From an uncultured Vampirovibrionales bacterium (GTDB lineage Bacteria; Cyanobacteriota; Vampirovibrionia; Vampirovibrionales; Vampirovibrionaceae), in NCBI GenBank assembly GCA_964390635.1, contig CAYMIG010000004.1:69439-133438 (forward strand): a DNA stretch of 64,000 nt, given 5' to 3'. Made by a program: the position numbers and the translations under genes. Of this stretch, positions 36,202 to 38,220 are shown piece after piece. Within the stretch, counting starts at the first letter, position 1. The number at the start of each line of letters is the position of its first letter. Under the pieces are notes generated by a model that did no database searches, was not told the origin of the DNA, and was given only the letters and a program-made list of their open reading frames with translations.

Positions 36202-37074
36202 ATGGTTTCACCAAGCGGTTTTGGCATGTCCCCGTTCCAGATGATGCCCATGATGGGTGCATCGCCCATGGGCTTTTCCGGCAGTCCCATGGCAAGCCCG
36301 GGGATGGGAATGGCGTCTCCCTTTGGCTTTGGCCAGAATATGGCCCAGCCGGGCGGTGGCATGGGGCAGGGGGATCCTGCCCAGATGATGTTTCAGATGA
36401 TGGGCATGATGATGATGATGATGATGTCCTTCATGATGATGCTGATGTCTATGTTGCAGCAGTCGGGGCAATCCCCGGGTAGCCCGGGCGGCCTGGCGGA
36501 CATGAACGTCCCGGGTGAGCGCCTTGGCAACGGCGGTGGCGGAGGCGGTGAAGGCGGCGGAGGCGGTAACTTTGCGGCCCTTAGCGATCGCGCGGTGCCC
36601 ACCACCCTGGAAAGCATGAATGTCGGCAACAACGCCGACCTGCGTAACAGCCTGGCGGCCATCGCCGAGGATCCTGACGGGGCCCGCTTGCTGGAGGCGG
36701 TACAGGCCAAGGGCATCCGTATTCGGGTGGGCGATCCGGGCGGCCCCGAGGTGCAAGGCCTCTTTACCGGTAACGAGATTATCGTGCGGGATCCCCGCAA
36801 CGTCAAAACCCTGGTGCACGAGATGGTGCATGCCGCCACCAATGGGGATGGCAACTCCAAAAGTGAGGAAGGTCGCGCCGACGTGATTGGTACCCGGGTG
36901 GCCCGCCGCATTGCCCAGAAGGAAGGCCTCGATCCGGGCAGCATTGGCGCCCGGGAGGGATCGGACCAGCACATCTTCGAAACCAAGAAGCAGGTGGACG
37001 GCTACCGTGGCCTTTCTGAGGAGAATGGCTCCCGGCAGACCCTGGCCCACCTGGGGGTGCAGGTGAACGTTTAG
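36202..37074 (+). CDS. Met/Gly-rich (harpin-like) N-terminal module fused to an HExxH zincin-like domain
   Basis: GAGGTGGG immediately precedes the ATG. N-terminus SPFQMMPMMGASPMGFSGSPM...MMFQMMGMMMMMMMSFMMMLMSMLQQ, then GNGGGGGGEGGGGGN. C-terminal VKTLVHEMVHAATNGDG. No signal peptide. Confidence 0.7.
   Translation: MVSPSGFGMSPFQMMPMMGASPMGFSGSPMASPGMGMASPFGFGQNMAQPGGGMGQGDPAQMMFQMMGMMMMMMMSFMMMLMSMLQQSGQSPGSPGGLADMNVPGERLGNGGGGGGEGGGGGNFAALSDRAVPTTLESMNVGNNADLRNSLAAIAEDPDGARLLEAVQAKGIRIRVGDPGGPEVQGLFTGNEIIVRDPRNVKTLVHEMVHAATNGDGNSKSEEGRADVIGTRVARRIAQKEGLDPGSIGAREGSDQHIFETKKQVDGYRGLSEENGSRQTLAHLGVQVNV
36406..36426 (+). repeat. (ATG)7 trinucleotide microsatellite encoding Met7
   Basis: catgatgatgatgatgatgatgtcc read directly; more ATG-rich sequence follows (ttcatgatgatgctgatg). 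Confidence 0.95.
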
Positions 37075-37122
37075 ACGCCCCCAACCGCCCCCGATGGGCG
37101 GGCCGAGGGCCGTTTTGGTTCA

Positions 37123-38220
37123 GTGGATACGTCAAAGGTAGGTAGGAAAGTGGTAAGTAGTGCTAGCGCAACGCCGGTAACCCGGCGGGATAACCTGGAT
37201 GCCTGCTGCAAGCAGCCCCAGCGGTCGGCGGATCGAACCGGCGGTGTGTCCGGCGGCAATGCCGATAGCCGGGCCAACGGCTCCTCCCTGGCTGGCAGCA
37301 ACGCCTTGGGCACCCAGACCGCCTTCGACCAGCACAACCCGTTTTCGGCCACCGGCCAGCAGAACAACCCCAATGCCACCGGCCCCAACGGCAACCCGCT
37401 GGGTCTGGACGGCAACAACCTGAAGGCCTCCGGCGACAACCTGCTTGGCATGATGGCCACCGTGGTGACCACCATGATGATGGTGGTGACCACCATGATG
37501 CAGATGGTCTTTTCCCAGCTACAAAAATCCAGCCCGGCCAGCACGGCTTCGGGCAGCGGGATTACTTCCGCCAGCAGCCAGCCTGGCGGCAACCAGCCGA
37601 CCGGCGCCCCCGGTGGCGGAAATGGCCCGGATGCCAACGGCGCGGCCATTGCCACCGGCTCCAACCTGCCCGCTTCTTCCCTGGCCGAGCGCTTTTCGGC
37701 AGATCGGGTTTCCCAGTTGTATGCCGGTTCCGCCGCCCCCAACGTGCAGCAGTACCTGCCGCACATCCTGGGCGCCCTGAAGGAGCAGGGGATCGACGAT
37801 CCGCAGATGGCCCTCTACGCCTTGGCCACTATCAAGGTGGAAACCGGCAGCTTCAAGCCCATTAGCGAATATTCGGGAGGCTATGCCTACGAGGGCCGCC
37901 GGGATCTGGGCAATACCCAGCCGGGCGACGGGCACCGCTTCATGGGGCGGGGTTTCATCCAGTTGACCGGACGGGCCAACTACGAAAGCTATGGCCGCCA
38001 GCTGGGCGTAGACCTGGTGAACAACCCGGAGCTGGCCAACGATCCGCAAATTGCCGCCCGGGTGCTGGCCCTGTACCTGAAAAACCACGAAGGACGCATT
38101 CGCAGCGCGCTGGCCGCCGGCGATATGGCTGCCGCCCGCAAAGTGGTGAACGGCGGCACCAACGGCTTGCAGGGCTTTACGGAGGCTTACCGCCAGGGTC
38201 AAGCGCTGGGTCTGGTTTAA
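37123..38220 (+). CDS. Ser/Gly/Asn-rich and Met-rich (harpin-like) N-terminal module fused to a GH19 lysozyme/chitinase-like domain
   Basis: GTG start (uncertain). LLGMMATVVTTMMMVVTTMMQMVFSQLQ. C-terminal ATIKVETGSFKPISEY...HRFMGRGFIQLTGRANYESYGRQLGVDLVNNPELANDP matches the GH19 / predicted-chitinase (COG3179-type) signature. Confidence 0.8.
   Translation: MDTSKVGRKVVSSASATPVTRRDNLDACCKQPQRSADRTGGVSGGNADSRANGSSLAGSNALGTQTAFDQHNPFSATGQQNNPNATGPNGNPLGLDGNNLKASGDNLLGMMATVVTTMMMVVTTMMQMVFSQLQKSSPASTASGSGITSASSQPGGNQPTGAPGGGNGPDANGAAIATGSNLPASSLAERFSADRVSQLYAGSAAPNVQQYLPHILGALKEQGIDDPQMALYALATIKVETGSFKPISEYSGGYAYEGRRDLGNTQPGDGHRFMGRGFIQLTGRANYESYGRQLGVDLVNNPELANDPQIAARVLALYLKNHEGRIRSALAAGDMAAARKVVNGGTNGLQGFTEAYRQGQALGLV
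37462..37500 (+). repeat. 21-nt tandem duplication (about 1.9 copies) inside the Met-rich helix coding region
   Basis: GTGGTGACCACCATGATG-ATG-GTGGTGACCACCATGATG encodes VVTTMMM-VVTTMM. Confidence 0.9.

Follow-up and report, generated by a model that had tools for sequence, protein, structure and literature searches.

Two adjacent genes, which we call A and B, occupy positions 36202 to 38220 of the stretch of contig CAYMIG010000004.1 analysed here (64,000 nucleotides, hereafter the window), and in both of them an N-terminal module rich in Met and Gly precedes a hydrolase domain, a predicted zincin-like metallopeptidase in A and a glycoside hydrolase of family 19 (GH19) in B. The genes are co-oriented, are separated by a gap of 75 bp and probably form one operon. 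Gene A starts with the ATG at 36202, just behind GAGGTGGGA, and its stop is at 37074; the open reading frame (ORF) found mechanically opens at 35695, and we placed the start at 36202 because the homologs begin at the Met of MVSPS... The ORF of gene B covers 37123-38220 and opens at the GTG at 37123, and its true start is likely the GTG at 37150 (356 amino acids), since this start was called in an independent Logan assembly and the 82%-identical homolog P0016 begins MVSSGSS... Gene A was called as a gene in the Logan assembly too. Both genes are real: their frames are backed by homologs, the ORFs that overlap them on the opposite strand are GC-driven artefacts, and their GC content and GC content at third codon positions (GC3) are typical of the window, which has a GC content of 62%. 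A scan for promoters and terminators gave nothing informative. All the peptide strings quoted in a preliminary description of this DNA were recovered in the frames of A and B, and its central statement, that two neighbouring genes join a similar Met/Gly-rich module without a signal peptide to different hydrolase domains, holds. The features of the pair are as follows (AF2, AlphaFold2; pLDDT, predicted local distance difference test; HMM, hidden Markov model).

36202..37074, + strand: gene A, 290 amino acids, N-terminal low-complexity region, Met-rich helix, Gly linker and zincin-like domain
36202..36375, + strand: A residues 1-58, disordered M/G/S/P-rich region beginning MVSPSGFGMSPF, no Lys or Arg, no signal peptide, AF2 pLDDT below 50
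36376..36462, + strand: A residues 59-87, Met-rich helix PAQMMFQMMGMMMMMMMSFMMMLMSMLQQ, a lone helix in the AF2 model
36463..36603, + strand: A residues 88-134, Gly-rich flexible linker including GNGGGGGGEGGGGGN, AF2 pLDDT below 50 for residues 89-121
36604..37071, + strand: A residues 135-290, zincin-like metallopeptidase domain (predicted), AF2 pLDDT 90
36817-36831, + strand: A residues 206-210, HEMVH, putative active-site motif
36847-36873, + strand: DGNSKSEEG of A, downstream motif
37150..38220, + strand: gene B, 356 amino acids, low-complexity region, Met/Thr-rich helix, G/S/P linker and GH19 domain
37150..37440, + strand: B residues 1-97, S/G/N/Q-rich region starting MVSSASATPV, with a Cys-Cys motif
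37441..37524, + strand: B residues 98-125, helix LLGMMATVVTTMMMVVTTMMQMVFSQLQ, 26 bits with the helix HMM, equivalent helices in P0016-P0023
37525..37680, + strand: B residues 126-177, Gly/Ser/Pro-rich linker, variable and gapped among homologs
37681..38217, + strand: B residues 178-356, endolysin-type GH19 domain
37840-37842, + strand: Glu231 of B, invariant
37867-37869, + strand: Glu240 of B, invariant
37945-37983, + strand: GRGFIQLTGRANY of B, GH19 motif

A portable module of disordered region and helix

A, B and their relatives share one layout, namely a short S/P-rich start, a hypervariable disordered region rich in G, S, P, N and Q (and in some cases M), a Met/Gln-rich helix of 25-30 residues that is moderately hydrophobic and typically ends in LQ-G, a Gly-rich linker and then the enzyme. 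The model of full-length A was built with AF2 on a 14-sequence alignment. The N-terminal region of A contains 21% Met, 24% Gly, no Cys and a single helix, and this helix, with 68% Met and a 19-residue Kyte-Doolittle mean of 1.74, is the extreme of its family; the helix of B reaches a mean of 1.77. Among the 53 predicted proteins of the window the densest Met stretches are those of A (16 in 25 residues) and B (8 in 25), the next protein having 6 and most having 4 or fewer; with a background of 2.55% Met, at least 9 in 25 is expected with a probability of about 6e-9 per window position. By a crude hydropathy test neither A nor B has a signal-peptide-like hydrophobic stretch in its first 35 residues, and the same test found a signal-peptide-like start in only 3 of 145 A-family representatives. 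The first 25 residues of the family are made up of S (13%), A and P (11% each), G (9%), N and T (7% each), with about 2 charged residues, and positions 2-5 show weak preferences.

The unit made of disordered region and helix is portable, because it is found on two unrelated enzymes, alone beside A homologs, and at the C-terminus of a permuted subfamily. The close relatives of B (P0016-P0023) carry a module of the same design as the A family in front of an enzyme unrelated to that of A. Module-only proteins of about 135-150 amino acids are encoded directly upstream of A homologs in two loci (L010, 9017-9469; L012, 9091-9498); they consist of G/A/N-rich low-complexity sequence, a Met-rich helix (..LVTLVMEMMSAMLQMITSLIGGGQN..) ending in LIGGGQN and a tail of GNAGNAG repeats, and are 52% identical to each other although their genera differ in GC content (59% and 44%). 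In the permuted subfamily (P0243, P0251, P0252, P0255, P0260, P0226 and the gene at 10001-10873 of L027) the zincin domain comes first and is followed by an N/Q/A-rich region and a Met/Gln-rich helix located 25-60 residues before the C-terminus, e.g. NPMMQMMMQMFMMIMQMMMRLFQMQQ, while the S/T/N-rich N-termini are retained. The adjacency of an A-family and a B-family gene, in this order, recurs in locus L022. The preliminary claim of a shared module is thus strengthened by four independent lines. A recent duplication of the module, or gene conversion between A and B, was considered and rejected; the DNA similarity of the two N-modules is limited to ATG runs, and neither is therefore a recent copy of the other. 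When a 20-sequence alignment of the helix was searched against a database of 5.8 billion proteins for further cargo domains, nothing came up at E≤10, the motif being too short.

Some details of single members may be recorded here. Several permuted members end in a hydrophobic tail (FNFFA, MTSFTA, AFNITA), and one of the permuted proteins, P0243, comes from a 36%-GC genome and is present on more than 20 contigs. A 400-amino-acid protein starting MAVSPGG is encoded downstream in L010 and is not conserved in L012.

The preliminary description had likened the modules to harpins, and we compared them with HrpN of Pantoea stewartii, which is encoded beside sctC, hrpT, hrpV and an AvrE effector. This protein contains 20% Gly and no Cys and begins MSMNTSPLGTSALQ..; its S/T/N-rich start and about 50 residues of low-complexity sequence are followed by LLAAALTGMMMMMSMMGGGG at residues 54-73 and then by Gly runs. 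The Met-rich stretch of HrpN that had been cited as an example is therefore accurate. The helices of the harpins HpaXm and Hpa1Xoo that elicit the hypersensitive response are SEKQLDQLLTQLIMALL and SEKQLDQLLCQLISALL (PMC5751972). Helices of the present family, e.g. ALTQILSMLATILTALIAQMQGG and QQIVSMLMTIMSMLMSMLQGG, are similar to these, and a likeness is also seen in family N-termini, e.g. MSINGITASLL... A has the composition typical of harpins (rich in Gly, free of Cys, no signal peptide, short helices), whereas B has it in part, since it contains two Cys. At the level of sequence nothing comparable was detected: the helix HMM reached 2.3 bits with P. stewartii HrpN and 1-5 bits with the HpaXm and Hpa1Xoo peptides, and the harpin families of Pfam and NCBIfam gave no match to A or B at E≤1. 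The likening to harpins thus stands for the architecture and does not extend to detectable homology.

The order of parts also matches that of two-domain harpins, HrpW1 and HopAK1 carrying a pectate-lyase domain and HopP1 a lytic-transglycosylase domain. As in A and B, an S/T/N-rich start without signal peptide leads into Gly-rich low-complexity sequence, a short hydrophobic or amphipathic helix (Met-rich in HrpN), Gly runs and a C-terminal wall-degrading enzyme. The organisms attacked are likewise photosynthetic eukaryotes with walls: harpins act on plants, and Vampirovibrio chlorellavorus preys on the alga Chlorella. The cargo differs, being a zincin and a GH19 enzyme in A and B and a pectate lyase or SLT domain in the two-domain harpins, and a permuted order exists in the A family. 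Harpins are encoded in hrp/type III secretion system (T3SS) clusters, whereas no T3SS genes were found around A and B, in the scanned ORFs of the window or in the Pfam-annotated related loci. A second comparison is offered by FlgJ-type muramidases and specialised lytic transglycosylases, which are exported by the machine that they help to assemble. These enzymes also combine a disordered N-terminal part lacking a Sec signal with a C-terminal peptidoglycan hydrolase, but A and B have no detected Rod-binding domain, lie outside any flagellar operon and belong to a group in which the module is found on a protease too.

Catalytic domains of A and B

The C-terminal domain of B was readily assigned. 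It scores 37.6 bits against Pfam PF00182 (Glyco_hydro_19), above the cut-off of 25.5 (E 2.6e-9), and matches the PHROG endolysin family phrog_181 at 1.2e-42; the VETG..SEY..GRGFIQLTGRANY string falls inside it. Its PDB matches are endolysins with E values of 1e-16 to 1e-9 (4ok7, 1.6e-16; 9hnv, 5e-15), the chitinases following at 1e-8 or weaker. Glu231, Glu240 and GRGFIQLTGR are invariant across 9 sequences and align with HESGGF...LQE of endolysin 4ok7. The GH19 assignment made earlier is thus confirmed by Pfam, PHROG and PDB, and by sequence B belongs to the endolysin subtype and not to the plant-type chitinases. GH19 phage endolysins, such as that of Salmonella phage SPN1S (4ok7), and bacterial peptidoglycan-binding GH19 enzymes share with B the Glu-x8-Glu pair and GRGxIQLTG, but differ from it in having PG_binding_1, LysM or NlpC modules or signal peptides. 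Distant relatives, 45-59% identical to B over the domain, carry PG_binding_1, LysM, NlpC/P60, M23 or VanY modules. Because of the PG_binding_1, LysM, NlpC or M23 modules in these relatives, peptidoglycan is the expected substrate and B is most likely a muramidase; chitin-like glycans may also be substrates. Unlike endolysins, B and about 8 close relatives have the disordered region and a Met/Thr-rich helix module, in a non-phage context. In the disordered region of B, at residues 19-20 (37204-37209), two Cys are followed by basic residues (DACCKQPQR); the motif recurs in P0016 (DACCKQPQR), P0017 (SSCCRRPCQQ) and P0021 (QPACCNQQ) and resembles the dual-palmitoylation motifs of GAP-43 type known in eukaryotes.

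Gene A received no assignment from Pfam, NCBIfam or PHROG. A k-mer-seeded database search returned 13 unnamed homologs, and 193 A-family clusters emerged when 1.84 billion cluster representatives were searched exhaustively with a profile. The motif HExxHA-x5-DGNSKxEEG is invariant in the 14-sequence alignment and across the roughly 190 clusters, and in the alignment so are residues H206, E207, H210, A211, D216, G217, N218, S219, E222, E223 and G224. In the AF2 model H206, E207 and H210 sit on the helix formed by residues 201-212, and D216, E222 and E223 are candidate third zinc ligands. The model of the domain alone (pLDDT 90) shows a pair of helices, then three strands forming a sheet, next the HExxH helix and last a long helix starting at EEG; this predicted topology is that of a minimal zincin. 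We compared the full-length and domain-only models with the PDB, and the domain-only model with BFVD, by using Foldseek. The top neighbours were thermolysin, the Pro-Pro endopeptidase PPEP-3, abylysin, selecase, botulinum neurotoxin (BoNT) light chains and phage metalloproteases; the zincin matches were all non-significant, with E values of at least 0.02 and query-normalised TM-scores not exceeding 0.43. The HExxH peptidase proposed for A is nevertheless strongly suggested by the invariant motif, by the confident model and by top structural neighbours that are all zincins, although none of them is significant.

As to sequence families, Peptidase_M91 was found below threshold in 10 of 11 A-family members (best E 1.8e-5), the window protein scoring 14-16.5 bits against a cut-off of 25, so that A does not belong to M91. 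A scored 13.6 bits against NCBIfam XopG (cut-off 150) and 12-13 bits against Peptidase_M85, the Pfam family of NleC (cut-off 23.8). The alignment of A with NleC of E. coli O157 by hhalign gave a probability of 45% and an E value of 2.2e-4 over only 44 columns around HExxH..D..E.G, and the PDB match to NleC had an E value of 0.2-0.5; a relationship to NleD was rejected, its hhalign probability being 1.3%. NleC (M85) and NleD/XopG/HopH (M91) resemble A in being small HExxH zincins with a short spacer to an acidic residue, the metal site reading HEIIHHVTGSSDPSGDSNIELG in NleC and HELVHAxxxxDGNSKxEEG in the A family, and in sequence searches of Pfam, NCBIfam and PDB it is to NleC/NleD-type effectors that A comes closest, always below the family cut-offs. 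They differ from it in the remaining domain and in the N-module, which are unrelated. That A founds a new zincin family without a Pfam model, outside M91 and probably outside M85, is well supported by these comparisons and by the predicted fold, and its nearest recognisable relatives appear to be small effector-type proteases. Two weak phage neighbours should also be mentioned. Residues 1136-1230 of a phage virion DNA-directed RNA polymerase chain (PDB 11fw_A) align with the profile of the A domain at E 0.014 (NLAKISNLPS...IYLVSPSMETLIHELVHAST), and a structural protein of Cellulophaga phage phi14:2 (BFVD S0A053) is a weak fold neighbour; both segments may represent a zincin-like module in ejected phage proteins.

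Proposed export and envelope function, and competing explanations

In a scan of one genome per GTDB species the A family was present in 15 loci. Metagenome-assembled genomes (MAGs) labelled Vampirovibrionales, Vampirovibrio or Melainabacteria account for 13 A-family loci, one of which (L016) belongs to the cultured V. chlorellavorus NCIMB 11383 and encodes a 263-amino-acid A homolog of the same layout. The remaining hosts are two MAGs labelled as filamentous cyanobacteria, with three loci (L008, L009 and L013; Oculatellaceae, Coleofasciculaceae); these may be predator contigs binned with their cyanobacterial hosts, or the MAGs may be mislabelled. At least L009 shows the synteny of Vampirovibrionales type between a response-regulator gene (1291-1950) and A. 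Among named genomes, close members of the A family came only from Vampirovibrionales/Melainabacteria MAGs, and distant members occur in one 71%-GC genome and one 36%-GC genome. In seven of these loci an ortholog of the window's response-regulator gene (18343-19050), 45-48% identical to it, precedes the A homolog by 7-8 kb, and this shared synteny indicates that the window derives from a Vampirovibrionales-type lineage, although its GC content is much higher. Several genomes hold more than one family member: L005 has tandem paralogs, L020 has two members, and the CABHPA and DATNPJ assemblies have two loci each. The preliminary remark that such proteins would be unusual in a cyanobacteria-related genome has to be qualified, since close members of the A family, among named genomes, come only from MAGs of the predatory Vampirovibrionales type; that way of life agrees with such proteins, but the order is not known to have an injectisome.

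The reading that we tentatively favour, at slightly less than an even chance, is that A and B are exported without the Sec system by a machinery which reads their unstructured N-termini, and that the helix module behaves at the envelope as harpins do. Export of this kind is suggested because a peptidoglycan hydrolase must leave the cytoplasm and yet has neither a Sec signal nor a credible anchor, and because the starts are rich in S, A, P, G, N and T and low in charge, S/T/N-rich starts being kept even in the permuted proteins. The first-choice route would be a type III-type export gate, i.e., that of the flagellum, with a type IV secretion system (T4SS) as second candidate. The gate comes first because no T3SS other than the flagellar apparatus is known in the order Vampirovibrionales (PMC4451040); both a flagellum and a T4SS are described for V. 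chlorellavorus, and delivery of hydrolases to Chlorella has been proposed (PMC4451040). Once exported, the helix module would bind to, or insert into, a membrane or the wall and self-associate as in harpins, so that the tethered protease and lysozyme would be held where an envelope is to be cut, be it that of the prey or, around a secretion machine, the wall of the cell itself. Paralog expansion, hypervariable low-complexity regions and an effector-like zincin fit the envelope of the prey; the peptidoglycan-type GH19 domain and the housekeeping neighbourhoods fit the cell's own wall.

Several observations weigh against this proposal. No injectisome has been reported for Vampirovibrionales in the literature, where we found nothing relevant linking Vampirovibrio to T3SS, effectors or harpins, and no T3SS, T4SS or type VI secretion system (T6SS) genes were present in the scanned parts of the window or in the Pfam-annotated related loci. 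A GH19 enzyme of peptidoglycan type has no obvious target inside an algal prey cell. Many A homologs lie among housekeeping genes (rplS, RNase HII, PBP1A), often between RNase HII and PBP1A, and a housekeeping role in the cell wall would therefore fit as well. The S/P-rich N-terminus is weakly conserved (0.3-0.6 bits per position) and resembles the rest of the disordered region, the likeness to harpins is one of architecture and composition, with no detectable homology, and membrane insertion is a borderline case for the two helices of the window, whose Hessa apparent insertion free energies sum to about 0 kcal/mol.

A bolder form of the proposal makes of the module an unrecognised harpin-like delivery or translocator module of predatory Melainabacteria, exported independently of Sec, by means of which the prey envelope would be breached or crossed via the Met/Gln-rich helix; we consider it unlikely. 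The effectors, which would leave the cell through the flagellar type III gate or by an unknown route and breach algal or cyanobacterial prey, would then include stand-alone 'harpins' besides the GH19 lysozyme and the new NleC/NleD-like zincin. If this is true, a set of effectors would for the first time be known for Vampirovibrio predation, and harpin biology, whether convergent or very distantly related, would extend beyond Proteobacteria. Secretion or injection, and a role in the attack of prey, is in any case what we infer for A and B from their sequences, and the two proteins are good candidates for exported attack or wall-breaching proteins.

The main rival explanation is that A and B are membrane-tethered periplasmic autolysins, whose helix would be an uncleaved signal-anchor, or an anchor like that of signal-arrest-release (SAR) endolysins, inserted via Sec/YidC with the disordered region remaining cytoplasmic, and which would remodel the peptidoglycan of the cell itself as it grows, divides or assembles machines. 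We regard it as doubtful, while granting it a real share of the probability. The insertion energy just mentioned agrees with it, as do the Kyte-Doolittle values of 1.6-1.9 of the window's A and B helices and of 5 of the 8 B-family members; moreover, the endolysin-type GH19 domain of B must reach the periplasm, many A homologs are beside PBP1A and near an M23 peptidase, and Thr, Ala, Gly and Met abound in the helix of B, as they do in the SAR domains of endolysins.

We then considered the helix across the family, in the 58 members detected by the helix HMM. Their best 19-residue Kyte-Doolittle means average 1.40, one third of the members reaching 1.6 and none 2.0, and the helix core holds about 2 Gln. 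Lys and Arg together number 0.14 over the 15 residues preceding the helix and 0.57 beyond it, which is the opposite of what an N-in signal anchor requires; A itself has no Lys or Arg before its helix. Some members (P0007-9 and P0014) have no segment of transmembrane grade at all. Because of this marginal hydrophobicity, the missing positive-inside bias and the helix-less members, a conventional membrane anchor is not the conserved function of the module, and the finding that the preliminary description had named as fatal to its own proposal did not apply to the family. Furthermore, the helix starts 60-250 residues from the N-terminus and not at it, permuted members place it 25-60 residues before the C-terminus, and module-only proteins carry no enzyme to be anchored. 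SAR endolysins, whose weakly hydrophobic domain is at the extreme N-terminus and which belong to phage lysis cassettes, are not a good model either, since the helix starts at residue 59 in A and 98 in B, without phage context. The window's own A and B, whose helices are the most hydrophobic of their kind, may nevertheless be tethered to a membrane, and if the module were only a weak membrane tether it would still be a new way of anchoring wall hydrolases.

Much less probable is that the helix and a following G-G form a double-glycine-type leader cleaved by a C39-peptidase ABC exporter (PCAT). Such exporters are common in cyanobacteria, many family helices end in ..LLQGG, ..LIGGGQ or ..LLGGQ, and a Sec signal is lacking. 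However, the window's A and B helices end in LQQSGQ and LQKSS, so that QQSG and QKSS follow the helix without any GG, and this, together with the permuted members that carry the helix C-terminally, disfavours a cleaved leader. In addition, the helix is 60-250 residues from the N-terminus, behind a region of variable length, folded enzymes of 150-180 amino acids are a large cargo for a PCAT, and no C39 ABC transporter was seen in any annotated neighbourhood.

The alternative put forward in the preliminary description, a role in Cu(I) binding, has an equally slight chance; the Met-rich segments would then be 'Mets' motifs that bind Cu(I) or Ag(I) for metal sensing or protection. Met makes up 21% of the N-terminal region of A, where GMGM and MxxM-like spacings occur amid disordered, Gly-rich sequence, the divergent neighbour gene is ferritin-like, and P0002 and the P0148/L013 proteins also have Met/Pro-rich regions. 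Against this, the Met content of the helix core varies from 10% or less to 68% (median 21%), 19% of members having 10% or less and the V. chlorellavorus helix a single Met, and Met is interchangeable with Leu, Ile, Val and Thr, i.e., acts as a hydrophobic residue. That the Met residues are not conserved speaks against a conserved Cu(I) site, and the alternative is disfavoured; conserved Met clusters were not found, His or Cys partners are absent, and the Met residues are in the predicted helix core and not in loops. Least probable of all is a remnant of a prophage or lysis cassette, in which B would be a phage-derived endolysin and A an accessory protease: among named proteins the catalytic domain of B has its best relatives in phage endolysins, and A weakly matches a phage virion RNA polymerase segment by profile and phage metalloproteases by fold, but no phage genes flank the pair, GC and GC3 are window-typical, the A family is syntenic across genera, and a phage origin of A was rejected after a scan of viral contigs (IMG/VR) gave one marginal match of 31 residues and PHROG gave none.

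V. chlorellavorus is reported to destroy commercial Chlorella ponds (PMC4913114), and the only published model of killing is the delivery of hydrolases through the T4SS (PMC4451040). The family described here was unannotated, is found among named genomes only in this lineage and is present in the cultured predator itself. By joining what is probably a new zincin family without a Pfam model, and in some genomes a lysozyme, to a portable, Sec-less and harpin-like Met/Gln-rich helix module, it provides concrete candidates for studies of the secretome, of knockouts or of inhibitors, and it could be a non-flagellar cargo of the flagellar export gate in the cyanobacterial phylum.

Neighbouring genes

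The gene divergent from the A-B pair encodes the ferritin-like protein. On the other side, three consecutive genes for lipoprotein-like or signal-peptide-like proteins (38258-40856, - strand), none with a Pfam match, are convergent with A and B. We considered them as immunity proteins and rejected this, since they have no Pfam match and are not conserved beside the A-B pair of L022. Upstream, 26014-35504 contains the cluster PrkA - SpoVR - DUF444 - second PrkA and then a ClpP/NfeD-like protease gene sharing 4 bp with the second PrkA gene; two PrkA paralogs within one cluster are unusual.

Further downstream, the only RNA gene found in the window is tRNA-Pro(CGG) (42226-42302, - strand). A large protein with TPR and SLT lytic transglycosylase domains is encoded at 49687-51993 (- strand), and a cellulose-synthase pair consists of a BcsA-like glycosyltransferase with PilZ (53530-56385) and a BcsC-like TPR outer-membrane protein (56413-60480). 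In related loci, transporter genes of the ShlB/POTRA (TpsB) type lie 4-8 kb from an A-family gene (L005, 4120-5997) and from a B-family gene (L023, 223-2169), a proximity in two unrelated loci that is possibly a coincidence.

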